Shown one piece after another: positions 4,738 to 23,581 of a stretch of DNA of 64,000 bases. This DNA is from Escherichia coli (GTDB lineage: Bacteria > Pseudomonadota > Gammaproteobacteria > Enterobacterales > Enterobacteriaceae). The translations under genes were made by a program, and so were the position numbers. The notes under the pieces were generated by a model. It was not told the DNA's origin, made no database searches, and was given only the letters and a program-made list of their open reading frames with translations. The stretch lies in assembly GCF_024298765.1 (NCBI RefSeq), contig NZ_CP101210.1. One strand, given 5' to 3'. Position 1 is the stretch's first letter; each line of letters begins with the position of its first letter.

Positions 4738-5538
4738 TTAACCGCGCTTCGCCTTCTGCGTCGCGGTGGTTTTTCGTGTTGCAGGCTTCCGCGTTGTCTT
4801 TTTACTTTTGCTGCTTTCGTTCTGCGCCTGTGGTGTGCTGGCATCTTCTGGTGCGGCTGCGGAATCGGCTTTTTTCAGAGCGCGGGAAAGGGTTGCAATC
4901 TCGCGTTTCACACCTGCGTTCGGGTTCAGGTGCATCGCTTCGCGCAGCAGCTTCAGTGATGAGGCCATGCTGTCCGCATCGCTCAGGCTACGGCGGGCAA
5001 AGGCGCACGCCTTGCATAATTTGGCTCGCACTTCGTCCGGCATATCCTGGTTGGCGACAATTTCCCAAAGTGTGTCCAGTGGTTCGATAAAGGCGGACAA
5101 ATCCGCGTCGGCATCCGTCCCGGCCTGCGTCAGTACCGGGTTGCAGATTTCTTCGGTCAGTACCGTGGCAGCAGTACGGCCAAAGTTATCCGGCATGATG
5201 AGGTTGTGACGGACCACATACGCACCAATACGCAGCGCAAGCGGAAGATCGCCGCAGTCAATTGCCCACACCATCAGCGTGGCAATCACTTCATCCTGCT
5301 GCCCGCCGTCAGCCTCCAGCGTTCCCTCAATCCAGCCGGAAAAGTCCGGCAACAACTCTTTTTTGATGGCGGCTTTCGCGCTTCTGGCCTGTACCCCCTT
5401 AAGTCGGGCCTGTGCCAGACGCAGACGATACAGCACCTCTTCATGCGCGGTACGCGCGGCGTGGTCCACGCCTTCATTCGCCCGGCCTGCGCGCTGTGCC
5501 ATCACGTTCTGCCAGTGTTGCTGTGCAGGAGTAATCAT
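4738..5538 (-). CDS. terminase small/endonuclease subunit (gpM-like)
   Basis: 266 aa; N-terminus and MPDEVRAKL segment match the remembered P2 gpM; lysine-rich C-terminal tail. Confidence 0.85.
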   Translation of the reverse strand: MITPAQQHWQNVMAQRAGRANEGVDHAARTAHEEVLYRLRLAQARLKGVQARSAKAAIKKELLPDFSGWIEGTLEADGGQQDEVIATLMVWAIDCGDLPLALRIGAYVVRHNLIMPDNFGRTAATVLTEEICNPVLTQAGTDADADLSAFIEPLDTLWEIVANQDMPDEVRAKLCKACAFARRSLSDADSMASSLKLLREAMHLNPNAGVKREIATLSRALKKADSAAAPEDASTPQAQNESSKSKKTTRKPATRKTTATQKAKRG

Positions 5539-7650: not shown

Positions 7651-9402
7651 ATGATTCAGGACGCTTTTGTGCGCCAGCGTGCGCGACAACTTTACTGGCA
7701 GGGTTATCCGCCCGCAGAAATATCACGTCTGATGGGAATAAACCCGAACACGATTTATGCGTGGAAAAAACGCGACCAGTGGGATGAAACGCCACCCGTG
7801 CAGCGTGTCACGCAATCCATTGATGCGCGCCTCATCCAGCTTACTGAAAAACAGAATAAAACAGGCGGTGACTTCAAGGAAATAGACCTGCTGACACGGC
7901 AGCTTAAAAAGCTGCATGATGGCCAGCCGGATGTGATTGCCGCAGGAAAGAAAGGCCGGGCGAAAAAACTCAAAAATCATTTCACGCCGGAACAGATTGC
8001 CGCACTGCGGGAAAAAATCATCAGCAGGCTGGAGTGGCATCAGCGGGGCTGGTTTGACTCCCTGACCCTTTGCAGGGAAGCCGGGATACGTAACAGGATG
8101 ATCCTGAAATCCCGACAGATTGGGGCGACCTGGTATTTTGCACAGGAAGCACTGCTGATGGCGCTGCGTGACGATGTGGTGCAACCTTATCAGCGTAACC
8201 AGATTTTTTTGTCTGCGTCGCGTCGTCAGGCGTTCCAGTTTAAAAGCATTATTCAGAAGGCCGCGGCTGAAGTTGATGTGGAGCTGAAAGGGGGCGATAA
8301 AATCATCCTCTCCAACGGCGCAGAGCTGCATTTTCTCGGCACTTCTGCTGCGTCGGCACAGTCCTATACGGGCAATTTTTATTTTGATGAATTCTTCTGG
8401 GTCAGTCGCTTTGCTGAACTGCGCAAGGTGGCTGGCGCTATGGCAACCCTCAGCGGACTGCGGCGCACCTACTTCTCCACGCCATCCACCGAAACGCACG
8501 AGGCATACGCCTACTGGAACGGCGACCGCTGGAACGAGAAAAAGGCCACGCATAAACGCCAGCGTTTTTCTGTGGACTGGAAAACGCTGCATAACGGGCT
8601 TATCTGCCCTGACCGGACGTGGCGGCAAATTGTCACGCTGGAAGATGTGGTTAATCACGGCTGGAAACACACCGATATTGATGAAATTCGTGATGAAAAC
8701 ACCGAAGACGAGTTCCTCAATCTCTATATGTGTGAGTTTGTCCGCGAAGGGGAATCGGCATTTAACCTGAATATCCTGATTGGCTGTGGTGTTGACGGAT
8801 ACGACGACTGGAAAGACTGGAAACCTTTTGCTCCCCGCCCGATGGGGAATCGCCCGGTATGGATTGGGTATGACGCAAATGGCAGCAGTGGCAACGGCGA
8901 CAGCGGCGCTGTGTCCGTGGTGGTTCCTCCGGCTGTTCCTGGTGGCCGTTTTCGAACGGTGGAGACGCGACGCGTTCAGGGGCTGGAGTTTGAAGAACAG
9001 GCCAGAGTCATTGAAGAGTTCACGTGTCGCTACAACGTGGAACACATCGGCATTGATGTGACGGGCGGGAACGGGGAGGCTGTTTATCAGATAGTGAAAC
9101 GGTTTTTCCCTGCCGCTATTCCGTACACCTTCACGCTGTCATCAAAACGGTCGCTGGTACTGAAAATGCTGCAAATAATGCGTGCAGGGCGGTGGGAATA
9201 CGATCGCGCCGAACGCGAGCTGGTCGCGGCCTTTAACGCCGTGCGTAAGGTGAAAACACCGGGCGGCTTTATCACTTACGAAACGGACCGCGCGAGGGGG
9301 ATCAGCCACGGCGACCTTGCGTGGGCAACCATGCTTGCTGTCATTAACGAACCAATTGGCGGCGAAGGAGAAAACGAGCGTTTCACGGTTATGGAGTTCT
9401 GA
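7651..9402 (+). CDS. terminase large (ATPase) subunit (gpP-like)
   Basis: 583 aa, divergent from O, followed by portal with 1-nt overlap, as in P2 P-Q. Confidence 0.85.
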   Translation: MIQDAFVRQRARQLYWQGYPPAEISRLMGINPNTIYAWKKRDQWDETPPVQRVTQSIDARLIQLTEKQNKTGGDFKEIDLLTRQLKKLHDGQPDVIAAGKKGRAKKLKNHFTPEQIAALREKIISRLEWHQRGWFDSLTLCREAGIRNRMILKSRQIGATWYFAQEALLMALRDDVVQPYQRNQIFLSASRRQAFQFKSIIQKAAAEVDVELKGGDKIILSNGAELHFLGTSAASAQSYTGNFYFDEFFWVSRFAELRKVAGAMATLSGLRRTYFSTPSTETHEAYAYWNGDRWNEKKATHKRQRFSVDWKTLHNGLICPDRTWRQIVTLEDVVNHGWKHTDIDEIRDENTEDEFLNLYMCEFVREGESAFNLNILIGCGVDGYDDWKDWKPFAPRPMGNRPVWIGYDANGSSGNGDSGAVSVVVPPAVPGGRFRTVETRRVQGLEFEEQARVIEEFTCRYNVEHIGIDVTGGNGEAVYQIVKRFFPAAIPYTFTLSSKRSLVLKMLQIMRAGRWEYDRAERELVAAFNAVRKVKTPGGFITYETDRARGISHGDLAWATMLAVINEPIGGEGENERFTVMEF

Positions 9403-10448
9403 TGAGCAGAAAAAATAAAAAAGTGCGCATGAGTTCACGCATTGATCTCGCTGATGCGCTCAGGAAAGAATCATCGCTCAGTGCATTCACATTTGATGGT
9501 CCTTATCGCCTGACCGGGCATGACCTGCTGGACAATATGTACTGTGCTGATAACGGGCGGTGGTATGAAACCCCGGTGGACTGGTACGGTCTGGCAAGAG
9601 CCGCCCGGCAAACGTCCTGGCATCAGTCTGCGCTTTACTTTAAGCGCAATGTATTACTCGGTTGCTACATCCCGCACCCGCTGCTTTCCCGGCAGGATTT
9701 CTCGGCGCTGGCGCTGGACTGGTTTGTGTTCGGTAACGCATTCCTTGAGCTTCGGAGCAATATGCTCGGCGAACCGCTTAAATTACGGCACGCCCTGGCG
9801 AAATACATGCGACGCGGAAGCGATCTTGAATCATGGTGGTATGTGCAGGATGGCAAGGACGCGTTCCAGTTTCGCCCTGGCAAAGTGTGCCACCTGATGA
9901 ATCCGGATATTAACCAGGAAATCTACGGCATGCCGGAATATCTTGGCGCATTACTCTCGGCCAGCCTTTCTCATTCGGCGGACATGTTCAGAAAACTGTA
10001 CTACGACAACGGATCCCACGCCGGGTGCATCATCTACATCGGTGCAGCGCAGGTAAACCGCGAAAGCATGGACTCCCTGAAAGAAACGTTACAGGGTGCG
10101 CGTGGTGGTGGTGCATTTAAAAACGTGCTCATTCATGCGCCCAACGGGGGCAAAGAAGGGGTGCAAATTTTGCCGTTCCAGCAGATCACCGCAAAAGATG
10201 AGTTCATGAATGTTAAGGCGGCATCCCGTGATGATGTGCTGGCTGCGCACCGCGTTCCGCCGCAACTGATGGGGGCGATGCCGGGCGAAAAAAGTGCGTT
10301 TGGTGATGTGGAGAAGGCCGCGCGGGTTTACGCAATTAACGAGCTGATGCCCGTCATGGAGGCCATGAAGCACATCAATGACTGGCTTGGCGAAGAGGTG
10401 ATCCGCTTTAACCCTTACGCACTGTTAGACACCCAGCCCACATCCTGA
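9402..10448 (+). CDS. portal protein (gpQ-like)
   Basis: 348 aa, size and position match P2 gpQ; last morphogenesis gene before the cos/cargo region. Confidence 0.85.
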   Translation: MSRKNKKVRMSSRIDLADALRKESSLSAFTFDGPYRLTGHDLLDNMYCADNGRWYETPVDWYGLARAARQTSWHQSALYFKRNVLLGCYIPHPLLSRQDFSALALDWFVFGNAFLELRSNMLGEPLKLRHALAKYMRRGSDLESWWYVQDGKDAFQFRPGKVCHLMNPDINQEIYGMPEYLGALLSASLSHSADMFRKLYYDNGSHAGCIIYIGAAQVNRESMDSLKETLQGARGGGAFKNVLIHAPNGGKEGVQILPFQQITAKDEFMNVKAASRDDVLAAHRVPPQLMGAMPGEKSAFGDVEKAARVYAINELMPVMEAMKHINDWLGEEVIRFNPYALLDTQPTS

Positions 10449-10872
10449 CGCGCTTCGCTTGTCTGCTGCTTCGCCGGGGCATAAAAAATTTATGCCCCGA
10501 CTCTCCAGCTCCTGTATCAGTCAGATAATTTCACGACGCTTTCCTGCTGATTGCCATCATCGACAGTCAGACTCTTACGCAATCCCACCGCGTTGACTGC
10601 ATGTTCTCGCCGTCTCAGTGCGATTTTGACGGCCTTACCTTTCACCCCATCAAATCAAAAGCCCTCACGTCTTTTTCACGCTCAGCGTGAGAAATACAGC
10701 CATTCTGTTGTGTCGCTGCGACATCGTTCAGGGGATGCTATTTACCCCCTGAAACGCGGGCTGTTCCCCCGTCACCTGCGCGCAGAAAAAATGCGTTTTT
10801 TTGTGCACGCACGGATCCTTGACGGATCCAGCCACCATGCGGGCCGGAAGGGCAAAAAGTCGTTCAAAAAAA

Positions 10873-10899
10873 TTGTGCAAATTTGTGCACTATTGTGCA
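10873..10899 (+). promoter_or_regulatory. three direct TTGTGCA repeats at 10-bp spacing with a nearby TATAGT; candidate operator/promoter of the cargo operon
   Basis: TTGTGCA at about 10873, 10883 and 10893 (a fourth copy near 10801); TATAGT at about 10904; about 80 nt upstream of the cargo ATG. Confidence 0.35.
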
Positions 10900-10978
10900 T
10901 TTGTATAGTGAAAAAAATATAGCAGAAAGTATACTTAGCGCCTTGTGGGCTACGTTAACTTTGCAGGAACATTTGGAA

Positions 10979-12358
10979 ATGAAAAAAATCAATAAAGAAG
11001 ATTCTAAAAGAACCTTTTTACGTGGATGGTTGCGATTTCTTCGTAGCGTTGAGAGAGCTAAGAAAAAAAAGCCTGCGCAAGAGAAAAATGGTAGTCTTCG
11101 TTTTTCCGATGAAACAACTCCTGTCCAAAACCAAGTCGCTACGTTCATTGAAAATATATCGATTATAAAAGAGTATGACTCATCAATTCTTCGTCGTGAC
11201 GCAGAGAAGATATTAATACCTAAATATTTTGACTTATATGACAATCCAGAGAAATCTCTGCTATTTATTAGTGCAGCCACAAAATTAATTGCAAGAGGTA
11301 AATGGAAATCATATATTTTTGATTACAAGAAAAACAAAAAACACTGTCTTGGTCTTGAGTGTCTATTAGGTGTTGCTCTTACAGCAGCAAGGCAAAGTAA
11401 TATAAATTTCAAAGATACGATGATTCAGATTAATGGTATCTACCCTAAAGATGAACAGTATCTTGAAATTATCAGGGATGTCGGGCTTGTAAAAGAGATT
11501 AGTAATGCTGCACCAGGTAAAGTTCTGGACTCTACTGAAGCATCGAAAAAAGCGAATCCGAAGAAACGAATCTTCTCTGCTGATAGTATCGGAAAGGAGA
11601 ATGCTTCTGCCTTTGCCCATGACAGAAAAAATGTCACTGCTGAAAAATTTACCGCATACATAAACGAATGCTTAAATGATCATAATTTAAAACTTGTACA
11701 TGAGGCAGAAAAGCATTTAACTTCCTGCATGGGGGAACTCCTTGATAATGCGGAGCGGCATTGTGGGTTAGAGCAACGCCCACGCTGGTATTTGAGAGGT
11801 TTTGTTAATAATAACGTACGAAACCCCATATGTGAGTTGGCTGTTTTCAATTTTGGGAAAACTATCAGCGAAACTTTTGATAATTTACCTGAGGATCATT
11901 TTTCATTAAGTCAACAAGTTAATCCATACATAAATAAGCATATTAAGAAAAAGGGTATGTTTAAGGAAGGATTAACAACAGTAGCGGCCTTGCAAGGGCG
12001 GGTGAGTTGTAAAAACGAGAAAGAAACTGACAGTTCTGGCACCGGAACAATTGAATTATTGAAGTTATTTCAAGATATGCATGATAATCTTAAAAAAATG
12101 GGAAGAGATATTAAAGGTGGGATAAAAATGACTTTAATATCTGGTAGTACTCATATTAACTTTGATGGATCATATAAATTAAAGCAAAGGTTGGTTAATG
12201 ACGAGGAAAGTGACATTTTTACTTACCCTTTTAATGATGTAGGGCTTGAATCTGAACCGGATCGCAACTATCTTAAGCGTATGAAGGATGCTCGATTTCC
12301 TGGAGTTATGATCAATATTCGTTTTCCTCTACCAGAAAACGCCACCCAGCGAACTTGA
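10979..12358 (+). CDS. cargo gene 1: GHKL-type ATPase / anti-sigma-factor-kinase-like protein, 459 aa from ATG 10979
   Basis: N-box-like ELLDNAERHCG, possible degenerate G1 (FNFGKT) and G2 (SSGTGT) boxes; AT-rich; AGGAA 8 nt before ATG; the track start at 10883 is a TTG. Confidence 0.6.
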   Translation: MKKINKEDSKRTFLRGWLRFLRSVERAKKKKPAQEKNGSLRFSDETTPVQNQVATFIENISIIKEYDSSILRRDAEKILIPKYFDLYDNPEKSLLFISAATKLIARGKWKSYIFDYKKNKKHCLGLECLLGVALTAARQSNINFKDTMIQINGIYPKDEQYLEIIRDVGLVKEISNAAPGKVLDSTEASKKANPKKRIFSADSIGKENASAFAHDRKNVTAEKFTAYINECLNDHNLKLVHEAEKHLTSCMGELLDNAERHCGLEQRPRWYLRGFVNNNVRNPICELAVFNFGKTISETFDNLPEDHFSLSQQVNPYINKHIKKKGMFKEGLTTVAALQGRVSCKNEKETDSSGTGTIELLKLFQDMHDNLKKMGRDIKGGIKMTLISGSTHINFDGSYKLKQRLVNDEESDIFTYPFNDVGLESEPDRNYLKRMKDARFPGVMINIRFPLPENATQRT

Positions 12359-12368
12359 GGACAGGTAC

Positions 12369-12713
12369 ATGAAAATGGCTGACATCACCATAGATTTCAA
12401 TAAGTTAGTAAAAGATAGTAACAAGAAACTTTTTGCTGGACGTTCTAATGGGCGCCAGGCCTATGATTACTTTAATATAGGGAAATTTTGCACAACCAGT
12501 AATGATAGATTATATCTATTGATCCCCAAGGGAATTGTTGTATCAAGCTCATACTTTCTAGGTATGCTTGAAACGGTTTTGCCGAAATTTTCTTCGCCTA
12601 GCGAATTTTATAGTCGCACTGTACTTGATGGTCGTGAATATAAAGAAGGTATGCTTTCTGAATTAGATAGAGCTGTAAGGAGAGGCTTACATAAAAATGT
12701 TCCCTTCTTTTAA
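12369..12713 (+). CDS. cargo gene 2: small STAS-like (anti-sigma-factor-antagonist-like) protein, 114 aa
   Basis: GAGGA 8 nt before ATG, overlapping the stop of gene 1; segment LLIPKGIVVSSSYFLGMLETV recalls the SSSF-type STAS-like signature. Confidence 0.55.
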   Translation: MKMADITIDFNKLVKDSNKKLFAGRSNGRQAYDYFNIGKFCTTSNDRLYLLIPKGIVVSSSYFLGMLETVLPKFSSPSEFYSRTVLDGREYKEGMLSELDRAVRRGLHKNVPFF

Positions 12714-13506
12714 AAATATTTTTCAAATCAAAATGACAGCGCTGTCTGTCATTTTTTTTATATTCCCCGCAGCTTGCTCTGTGACAGATTTTTCCAATAA
12801 AGAAAACATTGAATGTAATGAGTCACTTTATCCAAACACGCCTTTTTATATTTCCGATTCAGGACTTAGTGGTATATCATCACCGTTTTTGTTATCCGGA
12901 AACCCGAATGATGGCTTGATGTTTTGTGAAAAGGCAAACGACACCTTTCATAAGTTATCTCTGGCAAGGGATAACAAAAAAGATTTATTTACTAATTATT
13001 TCAAAGATGTTCCAAATTCCTATGATATATATAATATTGTAAAGGTTCCGGAAAATGGTCCAGAGTGGATTTCTATTGGCATCTCTTTATTTGCTTTAGT
13101 TTCATCCTTTGTTATTCCTTGTGTTCAACATAGAAAAGAACGTAAAGAAGCTATTAATGAAGGGTATTGGGTAAGAGAAGTAATTATGCCTAAAATTAAT
13201 GGGTTGGCATTCGATGTTGTGCAAAGTTTTAAAAACTCCATGGCATTATCAGAAGAGGAGTTTCTTAGTGTATTCAGTAATACTCTTTTACCAAAACTAG
13301 GAGAGTTACGGGATTCATTATATTTGTTTAATAGTTTTCCAGAATTAAATGCAGATATTGAAAATCTAGAAAGTATTTGTGACTCCTTGGAGGAAGAAGT
13401 TTCCAATCATATAGACTCGCCTAATGAAATAAGAATTTCTGATATATCAATGTTTCATTCCAAATTAATACAGAAATTAATTTTACTTCATAAGAAGATA
13501 GGTTGA
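12697..13506 (+). CDS. cargo gene 3: membrane protein, candidate effector (N-terminal signal/anchor, one internal TM, acidic C-terminal domain)
   Basis: Overlaps gene 2 by 17 nt; hydrophobic N-terminus TALSVIFFIFPAAC and TM WISIGISLFALVSSFVIPCV; AT-rich. Confidence 0.6.
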   Translation: MFPSFKNIFQIKMTALSVIFFIFPAACSVTDFSNKENIECNESLYPNTPFYISDSGLSGISSPFLLSGNPNDGLMFCEKANDTFHKLSLARDNKKDLFTNYFKDVPNSYDIYNIVKVPENGPEWISIGISLFALVSSFVIPCVQHRKERKEAINEGYWVREVIMPKINGLAFDVVQSFKNSMALSEEEFLSVFSNTLLPKLGELRDSLYLFNSFPELNADIENLESICDSLEEEVSNHIDSPNEIRISDISMFHSKLIQKLILLHKKIG

Positions 13507-13551: not shown

Positions 13552-16344
13552 CTATCGTGTTCGATGCAATAAACTGATTTTTTTGCGAGCATGTTTAGTG
13601 GTTTCACTGATTCTCTGTGCGTGCTCTGCGTCGCGGATGGCGCGCAGCATGTCAGAAAGTACGGTAACGGGTGTTTTCATGGTGTTCTGGTCTTGCTGAA
13701 GTGTGGATGCCAGGCGTGCGGCGGCTTCAGGGTCTGATGCCTCTAGTTGTTCCAGATAGCTGGCGACCGGGTTATGGCGGATCTCCGTGCTGCTTACGCC
13801 GTGATTACGACTCAGGCGTTGCCAGAGCTGCGTGATTCGGCTGTCCGGGCGGGTATCCTGTTTGCGTACAATTTCAAATCCCTGCGGTGCAATGATGCTG
13901 CCGCCAACGTACAGACTGCCGCCTCGTAACAGGTGCTGCATCTGCTGTTCACCGATATGCAGGCCGAGAGATTCAGCAGACTCCCGCCATTCTTTAGCGA
14001 GTAACTCGTGGTTATCAGGCAAAGGCTGTGGCTGTTTGCGGCTCTGTGTCCAGTTCTGCATTTCATCACTGCTGTTTTTTGCCTGTTTGTCACGCAGCGA
14101 ACGCATCAGTGCCCGGCGTTCGTGCCGTTTCAGTGAGCGCATCCATTCATTCACGTCAACGCCTTCAGGAAGCCGCGGCCACGGTGCTGGCCGTTCTTCC
14201 GGCTGTTCTGTCCCGTTGTTGTCCGTTTCCTGTACACGGGGACAGTTATTGCCACGAGTCCAAGGGGCGGCAGGGCCGCCCTGAAGGTCAAAACCATTTT
14301 CGCGGGCGCTGTCTTCCGTTTCCGGTTTACGTCTTACCAGTTTCCAGTTATCCGGATGCGTGCACACACGGGAGGATTCCCCGATGAGTGGTGACCAGAT
14401 CCCGTAAATCTGTACGCTCTGTTCGCCGTAATCATTCAGCTCATCTGCGAGGTCGTAGGCGGTGCGAATCAGGTAGTCTTTGCGTGGAACAAGTACGCCG
14501 CCCTGTTTTTCAATGTAGGTGGCAAAACACCCGGCATCGGCGGCAGCGAGTACCGCATCCATTGCGTCATCTTTCAGTCGTTGCGGGCCTTCCGGGTTGC
14601 GTGCCATCTGGCTGGCAAGGCGGCGCAGTTCACGCCACACCTGACGGGAGGGGATGCCAAAGAACTGGAACTGGCGGACCCGATGAAGGCGCGCCCAGCC
14701 GATGGCGCGCTCCACACTCTCGGCCATTGATTTTCCGGTTTCGTGGTCAACGCGTGGCTTGCCCGTTTTCGGGTCGATGCCATCCACGGCGCGGCTGTCC
14801 AGGTTCTTTCCGATGTAGGTCGCGATATAGCTGGTTGGTGTGCCTTTTGAGCCGTCGACATACTCCGCCTTAAAGCGCGGAGTAATATCATTGCCCAGCT
14901 CGTGGCGGTCTTCCTGAATGGCAATATCGCGGGTGATGGCCACGATGCTGTCGATTTCTTCCGGATGAGCAAAGACCATCATATGCCAGTGCACGGTGCC
15001 GTCATGGTGAGGCTCCACCGTGCGGATGCCATACCAGCGAAGACCGTCGCGGTTCAGTTTTTTGCGGACCGCCGCAAAAAACGTGTTAACCAGGTAATCG
15101 CTGGAGTCGCGCATGGTGGCCCCGTTCCATTTGGGATTCGGATGACCGTTCTCTGTTGTGGCGTGGTATTTTGACGGGCAGGTGACAGTCAGAAACACCG
15201 CTTTGTCGCCACGGGCTTCGGCCAGAAGTTCCAGCCCCTTCATGGTGGCCATCATTTCTGCCTTACGGTGAACCGGGTTACTTACTCCCGCGTAATACAC
15301 CGTCTCGAGATCAATCGTGAACCCGTCTTCGTTTTCCAGCATGAAACTTTTCAGGAAATCGCGTGTTTTCTCGCGCTGTGCGCGAAACTCGCTTAACGCG
15401 TCCTGGCTCAAATAGGGCGATGTTTTTCTGGAAACCAGACAGGCGGCGCGGAGTTGTTCTTCTCTCCACTCGCAACGTAACAGCCACAGTTTGCGTTTCC
15501 ACCATTCCGCACAGGTCAGGCGAAGGATTGCGCCCGGCAGCAGTTCTGTGTCCGGTTCGTTCCTCCGGTCTTTGTCTGTTGTCAGTGCGTCATAATGCGG
15601 AGGCATGGCGTGCAAGTGTAACGCCATGCGGGCCAGCATCTGATACGCCTTCAGCGTTACATCCATGGTCAGCTCGCCATCGGTCGCGCCAAAACCATCG
15701 CAGAGTTTTTCGAAGGTGCTGCTGAACATCGCCGCCGTCATGGTGGCCAGCGTCTGTATCTGGTGTTTGTTGAGTTGCGGCAGGTAAAGCAAATCGTCCA
15801 GGCGTTCACGTCCGGCAAGGGACCGATAACCCGGTGTCAGCCAACGGCTGTCGGTGCGGTCCAGACGTACGAATATTTTGCGCAGGGTTCCGCGCGCGTA
15901 GCGTTCAGCCTGCCAGCTCTTTTTGCCTTTCTGACGATCGGATTCCTGTTTTTTGCGCAGGAAAGAGAGGTGGCGGCTCAGAGGTTCACGCAGATAAACG
16001 GGAAGCACCTTCAGTGTGGCAAAAGCACGGGCCACCGGGTCTTGTTCTGTTGCCTGACGCTTGCTGATGATGCTTTGTGCCAGCTTTTCACGCTGTCCGG
16101 CTTCCTCAAGGGATGCCATGAGTTTTTTACCCACGGTGGATTGTGCGAAAAAGGCTTCCTCCTTCGCTTCCTGTTCTTTCCGGGCCTTTTTGTCCGCCTC
16201 AAGGTAGTAACGGATGGCGCGTTGCAGCTCGGTTTCAGTTTCCTGCCTGCGCTCCGTAAATCTGTCCGGATCAATGGCTGGCCGTGGTTCATTCCAGCTC
16301 CATGCAAACTCACTCATGGCTGGTATCCCGTCACGCGCTGCCAC
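13552..16344 (-). CDS. replication initiation endonuclease (P2 gpA-like, rolling-circle HUH type)
   Basis: 930 aa with HWHMMVFAH HUH-type motif; position between early genes and cargo as P2 A. Confidence 0.8.
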   Translation of the reverse strand: MAARDGIPAMSEFAWSWNEPRPAIDPDRFTERRQETETELQRAIRYYLEADKKARKEQEAKEEAFFAQSTVGKKLMASLEEAGQREKLAQSIISKRQATEQDPVARAFATLKVLPVYLREPLSRHLSFLRKKQESDRQKGKKSWQAERYARGTLRKIFVRLDRTDSRWLTPGYRSLAGRERLDDLLYLPQLNKHQIQTLATMTAAMFSSTFEKLCDGFGATDGELTMDVTLKAYQMLARMALHLHAMPPHYDALTTDKDRRNEPDTELLPGAILRLTCAEWWKRKLWLLRCEWREEQLRAACLVSRKTSPYLSQDALSEFRAQREKTRDFLKSFMLENEDGFTIDLETVYYAGVSNPVHRKAEMMATMKGLELLAEARGDKAVFLTVTCPSKYHATTENGHPNPKWNGATMRDSSDYLVNTFFAAVRKKLNRDGLRWYGIRTVEPHHDGTVHWHMMVFAHPEEIDSIVAITRDIAIQEDRHELGNDITPRFKAEYVDGSKGTPTSYIATYIGKNLDSRAVDGIDPKTGKPRVDHETGKSMAESVERAIGWARLHRVRQFQFFGIPSRQVWRELRRLASQMARNPEGPQRLKDDAMDAVLAAADAGCFATYIEKQGGVLVPRKDYLIRTAYDLADELNDYGEQSVQIYGIWSPLIGESSRVCTHPDNWKLVRRKPETEDSARENGFDLQGGPAAPWTRGNNCPRVQETDNNGTEQPEERPAPWPRLPEGVDVNEWMRSLKRHERRALMRSLRDKQAKNSSDEMQNWTQSRKQPQPLPDNHELLAKEWRESAESLGLHIGEQQMQHLLRGGSLYVGGSIIAPQGFEIVRKQDTRPDSRITQLWQRLSRNHGVSSTEIRHNPVASYLEQLEASDPEAAARLASTLQQDQNTMKTPVTVLSDMLRAIRDAEHAQRISETTKHARKKISLLHRTR

Positions 16345-22369: not shown

Positions 22370-23581
22370 TCACCCCACTTCTGGTAACAACCCTGCCGCA
22401 ATCAAAAATTGCACGCCAATCACAGCAATACCACAGAGAAACACCACCACCAGCGCCGGACGACCACCTTTGACCCGGTAACCCGCCTGAGGATTGTGCT
22501 TTCTGCTTTGCCAGGTCAACAGCGAAGGGATAATCAATGCCAGTACCGCCAGCGCCACACCGGCGTAACCCAGCGCCATCACAAATCCTCGTGGATAAAA
22601 CAGTGCAAACGCCAACGGCGGCAGAAAGGTAATTGCACCAGTTTGCAATCTTCCACCAACGGTATTTGAACGCTGAAACAAATCTGCCAGATAATCAAAT
22701 AAGCCTAACGCTACGCCGAGGAAGGACGTGGCGAGGGCTAAATCAGCAAATAAATGCACTGCCAGCTCAACATGCGGAGAGGCCACCATTTCGCGTAACG
22801 CCTGTAACAGCCCGTTTAATCCGGCATGATTAGCCAGCAATCCCATAAAGGTTGTTGAATCAATGCTGCCAAGGGTCGCCAGCTGCCAGAAAATATATGC
22901 CACCAGGGGGATCGCACTACCGATTATAAACACCCAGCGTAGCTTACGAATGTTGCCATCCATATAGCTGACAATACTCGGCACGCTACCGTGAAAACCA
23001 AACGACGTAAAAATCACCGGGATTGCAGACAGTGCCAGTCCCTGTTGCAACGGCAGGGTTAAAAGATTCACTTTGTGAATATGCGGTAGCAGCAATACCA
23101 GCATCACCACCAGAAAAATAATTTTGGCGCTGAACAGAAAACGGTTAAATAAATCGACCAGCGATGTCCCGACACAAACCACGCCACCGGCAACAAAAGT
23201 GAACAACAGCACGCCAGCGGTTGCCGACATTGAAATACCTGTCCAGTCGCTGATGCTGGAGGCCAACAATTCACCGGCACCGCTGATGTATGCCGCAGTC
23301 AGAGCATACATTAAGAACATCATACTGAAGCCCGTCAGCCACTGACCGTAGCGTCCCAGATAGCGTTTTGCCAGCGTGCCCAGACCGGTATCTGCCGGGA
23401 CATGCTGGTACACCTCCAGTAGTAATAGCGCCGTGTAGCACATCAACGCCCAAAGCCCAATCAACAAGATTAACGTGACGCTAAAACCAACACCTGCCGC
23501 AGCCAGCGGCATTGCCAGCATGCCTGCGCCAATTGTGGTTCCCGCCACGATAAAAACACTTCCCAGAGTTCTGTTTTTCAC
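22370..23581 (-). CDS. tyrP: tyrosine-specific transport protein
   Basis: 403-aa polytopic membrane protein; sequence and context as E. coli tyrP. Confidence 0.9.

Follow-up and report, generated by a model that had tools for sequence, protein, structure and literature searches.

We propose that the non-coding interval behind the portal gene of this prophage comprises three separate things: a hairpin at the end of the operon (10475-10499), the stub of an accessory gene (10517-10645) and the packaging site, cos, at about 10740-10899. We give this reading a probability of about 80%. All positions refer to the window, i.e., the whole stretch of 64,000 nt that was analyzed. The cos site is assigned from sequence comparison as a diverged, P88-type version of the site of phage P2, and its location relies on three independent lines of evidence: an island of conservation, the sharing of this island with satellites and the architecture of the region. 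It is apparently an undescribed, diverged member of a well-known kind, and its position, parts and partners are as expected. Our literature search found no paper containing the core sequence, and the term cos does not occur in the P88 genome paper.

Judging from its sequence, the prophage is P88-like and belongs to the genus Xuanwuvirus of the family Peduoviridae (the P2 family). The interval after its portal gene presents 92-97% identity to P88, phiSM, 500465-2, Chuche and P88_4B11, which are all members of Xuanwuvirus. The scaffold, capsid and small-terminase genes are located on the strand opposite to the large terminase and portal genes. The prophage integrase (22437-23429 and beyond) adjoins dmsA, with the right prophage end at about 23.5 kb and the left end beyond the start of the window. 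We used the RefSeq annotation of a reference strain whose cos segment (10760-10900) is 100% identical to that of the window and whose gene coordinates match the window's ORFs. This annotation contains zero genes between the portal stop at 10448 and the start of the next CDS at 10979. The interval had previously been described as non-coding from 10449 to 10880; it is non-coding, but the true gap extends from 10449 to 10978. Since the next CDS is annotated from 10979, the mechanical list's ORF start at 10883 differs from the annotated one. The ORFs inside the gap are only 21-123 codons long, and we rejected them as real genes with the exception of a 42-codon stub, which is the remnant of a longer gene. 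Portal gene, island, cargo and replication endonuclease follow one another in the layout expected for a P2-family cos, which in P2-type prophages is found between the portal gene Q and the accessory hotspot or replication gene A (PMC9122126). The coordinates of all the features are given in Table 1.

Table 1. Features of the portal-side gap, their partners and related satellites (positions in the window, unless an accession is given).
Feature	Position	Strand	Remarks
Whole cos island (predicted packaging signal)	10740..10899	+	Satellite sharing, conservation island, intermediate-profile match
Predicted cohesive-end (cosN) segment	10758..10778	-	C-rich GGGCTGTTCCCCCGTCACC (10758-10776, + strand); nicks predicted to about +/-3 nt
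Spacer, 19 nt	10777..10795	+	Palindrome TGCGCGCA and short dyad; equivalent to P2 spacer CGCCCGCTTCACGGGGCGG
First box, TTTTTTTGTGCAC (T-run and GTGCAC)	10796..10808	+	Equivalent to P2/186/P4 TTTTAATGCA, which closes their 55-bp core
Central imperfect dyad CCAGCC...GGCCGG, then AAGGGCAAAAA	10828..10858	+	Positional match to the CCGCGCC...GGCGCGG dyad of P4/186 cos
Three TTGTGCA boxes, exactly 10 bp apart	10873..10899	+	Putative sites for small-terminase binding; counterparts of the three ATGCA boxes in P2/186/P4
Perfect hairpin	10475..10499		11-bp inverted repeat CGGGGCATAAA / TTTATGCCCCG at 10475-10485 and 10489-10499; 3-nt loop
Minus-strand ORF stub, 42 codons	10517..10645	-	N-terminus of a 237-aa accessory gene (phrog_5091, unknown function)
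Portal gene (gpQ homologue)	9402..10448	+	RefSeq "phage portal protein"; 47% identical to P2 gpQ; the interval follows its stop codon
Large terminase subunit (gpP homologue)	7651..9402	+	44% identical to P2 gpP, full length; trans-acting partner
Small terminase subunit (gpM homologue)	4738..5538	-	RefSeq gpM; 37% identical to P2 gpM, full length; trans-acting partner
Replication endonuclease	13552..16299	-	Right of the three cargo genes (10979-13506)
Satellite-like loci	NZ_AP042483.1 144478-156617	reverse complement	L008 (E. coli OkiPb01677); also L017, L037, L085, L111

We observed that distant P2-like prophages present about 70% identity to the window over 10760-10900, relative to random identity in the flanks (10449-10736 and beyond 10900). 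Among 66 distinct P88-type sequences, homology stops within 1-2 bases past 10899, at the third TTGTGCA box, and the minor-allele frequency rises from 0 to 0.25-0.55 past this position. The expectation of the earlier note that cos lies in 10449-10880 was thus correct as to the gap, but the element extends past 10880 to 10899. In these sequences the position 10899/10900 marks a sharp recombination boundary of the hotspot, and the abrupt end of homology agrees with the situation in P2, where the hotspot immediately adjoins cos (PMC9122126). A 21-mer of the boxes served as the seed to gather the relatives, and the conservation of 10870-10890 is biased for this reason. The least variable unbiased stretch among the 66 sequences is the core (10749-10788), which is nearly invariant.

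The second line of evidence comes from satellite-like elements. When five of them were compared to the entire 64-kb window with BLAST, they presented one match only, at 10740-10899 (81-82% identity over about 162 bp). Cos is likewise the only homologous region between P2 and its satellite P4 (PMC9122126), and the sharing of nothing but 10740-10899 therefore parallels P2 and P4 and supports the assignment of this segment as cos. The satellites are about 10 kb long and encode an integrase, an 889-aa toprim primase, an Ogr/Delta zinc finger, an Icd-like protein, a 236-aa protein of unknown function and a capsid homologue of the P2 family. This capsid homologue (423 aa) is 35% identical to the capsid of the window and carries an N-terminal extension of about 120 aa. 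We found no Sid/Psu, terminase, portal or tail genes in these elements. Of 5426 complete E. coli genomes, 57 contain the satellite segment; in about 400 additional genomes the match is limited to its cos part. The literature search returned no description of a family of satellites encoding a capsid, and this family is a more unusual by-product of the analysis than the cos site itself. We tentatively suggest, at somewhat less than even odds, that the P88-type cos defines a second packaging-specificity group among the P2-like phages of E. coli, with dedicated capsid-encoding satellites. If this is true, the cos type would determine which helpers and satellites form pairs, and satellites that carry their own P2-family capsid instead of Sid/Psu would resize or replace the capsid of the helper by another route than P4.

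The architecture of the island was compared to the cos sites of P2, 186 and P4. As cited in PMC3931495 and PMC9122126, Ziermann and Calendar (1990) described for these phages 19-nt 5' cohesive ends (GGCGAGGCGGGGAAAGCAC) and a conserved core of 55 bp. The canonical P2 end had escaped a search by eye, and it is indeed absent: no match with up to three mismatches was found on either strand of the whole 64-kb window, neither in the gap nor elsewhere. The canonical 19-mer could not be found because this cos has diverged from that of P2, as the earlier note had considered possible. The reverse complement of 10758-10776 (GGTGACGGGGGAACAGCCC) matches the P2 end at 13 of 19 positions, which is the best ungapped match to P2, and this segment is unique in the window. 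The cohesive-end sequence of 186 is GGCGTGGCGGGGAAAGCAT. We used the annotated ends of P2, 186 and P4 to reconstruct their cos regions in joined form, and observed the following order from the portal gene outward: GCGCGC, the 19-mer, a 19-nt spacer with a dyad, TTTTAATGCA, about 60 nt with a dyad and three ATGCA boxes. The window presents GGGCTGTTCCCCCGTCACC, a 19-nt spacer, TTTTTTTGTGCAC, the dyad CCAGCC...GGCCGG with AAGGGCAAAAA and three TTGTGCA boxes. P2, a Klebsiella-type intermediate and the window all present the same distance of 42 nt from CCCCG to the first box (GTGCAC or ATGCAC), and MAFFT aligned eleven sequences through a cos block of 120 columns with a single gap column. The alignment with P2 and 186 cos that had been proposed as a check thus revealed a collinear site with the same spacings, but the direct sequence similarity is weak.

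Indeed, an ungapped scan of 150-nt identity between P2/186/P4 and the window did not give cos the top score or otherwise distinguish it, and no match at the cos of the window was obtained with a profile of the three sequences P2, 186 and P4. With a profile of the P88 family, the cos sites of P4 and 186 were the top matches and in register, at marginal E-values (respectively, 0.02 and 0.06). The link is solid through the Klebsiella-type intermediate, as judged from sequence profiles, and only marginal when drawn directly. This intermediate consists of the IMG/VR loci L031, L061 and L120, which are related to Klebsiella phage 3LV2017. Its core contains GCGCGCTTGCTCCCCCGCCTCGCC, whose last 12 bases are those of P2, and its boxes are of the P88 type. 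The intermediate profile matched the cos sites of P4 (E = 1.5e-10, whole site), 186 (E = 7e-6) and P2 (E = 3e-5), each in register. Against the window it gave a single significant match at 10743-10914, with an E-value (5.6e-20) that is partly inflated because the relatives were gathered with the 21-mer seed of the boxes. Through the intermediate, the P2/P4 19-mer maps to 10761-10776 of the window.

Several further properties of the island bear on its internal organization. Relative to the window, the plaque-forming phage P88_4B11 is without 10756-10760 (GCGGG), just left of the core, and carries a T-to-C change at 10765. Because this phage forms plaques without 10756-10760, the essential part required by the terminase would begin at or after 10761. 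TTGTGCA occurs in 11 copies in the 64 kb, and four of these, each on the + strand, are found at 10801-10899. In the segment that joins the first box to the central dyad, ACGGATCC occurs twice in direct orientation, 11 bp apart (10811-10829), and forms two BamHI sites; this repeat is conserved in the P88 type, and other lineages present one CGATCC only. We looked by eye for an IHF consensus near 10860-10876, but its spacing does not fit. We also noted that the linear record LR595891.1 / NC_049391.1 (Xuanwuvirus P884B11) has its ends within the cos island, in the stretch that separates the first box from the three-box cluster. In the collections that we searched, no phage record was found to start or end at the P88-type cos or to have mapped ends. 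Some IMG/VR loci start near cos, but the distance of these starts upstream of the box pattern varies from 47 to 266 nt; as they do not cluster, they are uninformative as ends and we rejected them as physical ends.

A G-rich stretch had been pointed out near 10838-10860, and it is present as GGGCCGGAAGGGCAAAAA at 10841-10858. It does lie in cos, where it corresponds to the central dyad between the boxes and not to the cohesive-end sequence. We consider it unlikely that the cohesive ends arise from a cut within or beside this block (about 10836-10873) instead of the C-rich core (10758-10778). In favor of such a cut, the linear GenBank record of P88_4B11 has its two ends at the equivalent of 10854/10855, the block loosely resembles the P2 19-mer on the opposite strand (8-9 of 19 positions) and it is conserved between lineages as GGGCnGnAAGGGyAwAAA. 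However, the authors of P88_4B11 chose nucleotide 1 relative to reference genomes after trimming the repeats at the contig ends (PMC6969025); the ends of the record are therefore neither physical nor mapped ends, and we rejected them as termini. Within P88-type phages, few parts of the island vary as much as the region of the block, with 15 variable sites in 10829-10848 relative to 2-3 per 20-nt bin across 10749-10788. Finally, the chain of homology places the P2/P4 19-mer on the core and the G-rich block on the central dyad of P4 and 186.

The lack of the canonical 19-mer could also indicate that cos is degenerate and that the prophage cannot package its DNA, as the earlier note had envisaged. 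This seems quite improbable to us. The island of the window is identical to that of three other loci, and it differs from those of P88 and phiSM at few positions, all of them outside the core and the boxes. P88 and phiSM have been described as active phages (PMC6456863), and because these viable phages share the core and the boxes with the window, a packaging defect is unlikely. Moreover, the ORFs of the gpM, gpP and gpQ homologues are intact and full-length, and the same island is present in about a fifth of the complete E. coli genomes (1138 of 5426). By these comparisons, the prophage is probably competent for packaging.

The perfect stem-loop near the portal gene had been pointed out in the expected cos region, with a 10-bp stem at about 10476-10498. 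The stem is perfect indeed, but it is 11 bp long and the hairpin spans 10475-10499. It begins 27 nt past the portal stop and separates the portal gene from the convergent minus-strand stub; its upper stem is A/T-rich. Folded as RNA of the + strand, it reaches -18 kcal/mol (z = -4.5), and none of 200 shuffled sequences folded as well. It was found in 77 fetched loci in three near-identical sequence forms. This strong conservation in P88-type prophages, the perfect stem and the location on the portal side of cos could speak for the hairpin being part of the packaging signal, e.g., a termination element like cosQ of lambda. We regard this as very improbable. The hairpin is located about 260 nt upstream of cos, and its distance to the box cluster varies among relatives: 343 nt, 393-396 nt (about 395 nt in 70 loci), 416 nt or 856-969 nt (4 loci). 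Furthermore, the satellites with the cos island, which need all cis-acting packaging signals on their own DNA, lack the window-type hairpin, as do other lineages with the same cos boxes. The records of P2 and 186 present terminators at this position, annotated 6-9 nt past the portal genes (P2 tQ and 186 tW). On these comparisons, the hairpin does not belong to cos.

The hairpin resembles an intrinsic terminator in that its stem-loop is stable, contains G+C pairs and comes right behind the last operon gene. The sequence next to the stem is ACTCTCC on the + strand and GCGAAGC on the - strand, and the U-rich tract that canonical intrinsic terminators carry was not found in either direction. The terminator scan made no call at the hairpin because there is no T tail. 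Since there is neither a T-run on either strand nor a call of the scan, we infer the term terminator from position: the hairpin would be an end-of-operon element in the place of P2 tQ and 186 tW. Strong hairpins are found 10-55 nt past the portal stop in every lineage examined, although their sequences are not homologous. P2 tQ and 186 tW are annotated as rho-independent terminators of the P-Q (W) operon; the hairpin of the window differs by its missing T-run and its A/T-rich upper stem. It is equally possible that it stabilizes the 3' end of the mRNA or acts as a weak bidirectional stop. An Rfam match to gyrA RNA was below threshold (22 bits relative to a gathering score of 45) and was taken as chance.

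We give hardly any credence to the idea that the island is a transcriptional control region with operators, promoters or terminators for the cargo or the minus-strand ORF: the boxes do repeat at one helical turn, as operators often do, terminator-like hairpins with T-runs were called on both strands (10780-10796 plus T7, to 10802, on the + strand; 10890-10875, with a T-run to 10866, on the - strand) and a promoter-like site follows at 10908-10935, but the island is kept beside many unrelated cargos and in satellites without both neighboring genes, it is collinear with experimentally defined cos sites and the promoter-like site falls in the variable, cargo-specific part. One may speculate that the hairpin and T-run motifs inside the island insulate cos from transcription.

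Both sides of the island carry accessory genes or their remains. The phrog_5091 gene is intact in a minority of relatives (e.g., L021, 3061-3774, - strand). The stub of the window and its upstream region account for the extra 150 nt or so between Q and cos relative to P2. This gene and its stub mark a second, small slot for cargo at the portal-side flank of cos. Directly to the right of cos, in the known P2 defense hotspot, a three-gene cassette was observed (10979-12358, 12375-12713 and 12697-13506, all on the + strand). The cassette presented no match in Pfam or PADLOC and only weak matches to PHROGs of unknown function. It represents a candidate uncharacterized defense system.

We infer the pairing of proteins with elements, the positions of the cuts and the length of the overhang from a mechanism modeled on P2 and on cos phages in general (PMC7617512). 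By homology, the gpM homologue would bind the phased TTGTGCA boxes at 10801-10807 and 10873-10899 and would recruit the gpP homologue. The latter would nick the two strands of the C/G-rich core at staggered positions (about 10758-10778) and yield G/C-rich cohesive ends of roughly 19 nt whose sequence is close to GGTGACGGGGGAACAGCCC. The same enzyme would package the satellites that carry the same island. The hairpin would end the terminase-portal operon and would be unrelated to packaging. The cargo hotspot starts directly past the last box.

Knowing the cos site of P88-like phages would allow their genomes to be oriented correctly. It would also fix the left border of the cos-proximal defense hotspot at 10899/10900 and allow the prediction of satellites or cosmids that P88-like phages can mobilize. 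In addition, it corrects a tempting misreading, in which the perfect hairpin beside the portal gene is taken as the packaging site. The biology is otherwise as expected of a phage of the P2 family, of which cos is an ordinary feature.

The proposed cos resembles those of P2, 186 and P4 by its position between the portal gene and the accessory hotspot or replication gene. It also shares with them a G/C-rich core, a 19-nt spacer, a T-run with a TGCA box, a central dyad and three boxes about 10 bp apart. As in P2 and P4, cos is the only DNA in common with a satellite and the terminase subunits are homologous. In contrast, the core of the window agrees with the P2 19-mer in only 13 of 19 positions, beyond the limit of three mismatches, and the GCGCGC motif is found on the other side of the core relative to P2, 186 and P4. 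The P2-type boxes are (A/T)ATGCA with a spacing of 10 and 12-13 bp, whereas those of the window are TTGTGCA with a spacing of 10 and 10 bp. The terminase subunits are only 37% (gpM) and 44% (gpP) identical to those of P2, and the distance from the portal stop to the core is about 310 nt in the window relative to 167 nt in P2. The ends of P2 have been mapped, whereas the cos of the window is predicted from sequence comparison. The cos site of phage lambda is organized as cosQ-cosN-cosB with R boxes. It presents no sequence homology to the site described here, it is cut by another terminase family, and both the overhang length and the arrangement of the boxes are different; in both sites, however, the nicking site is flanked by repeated boxes that bind, or are predicted to bind, the small terminase subunit.
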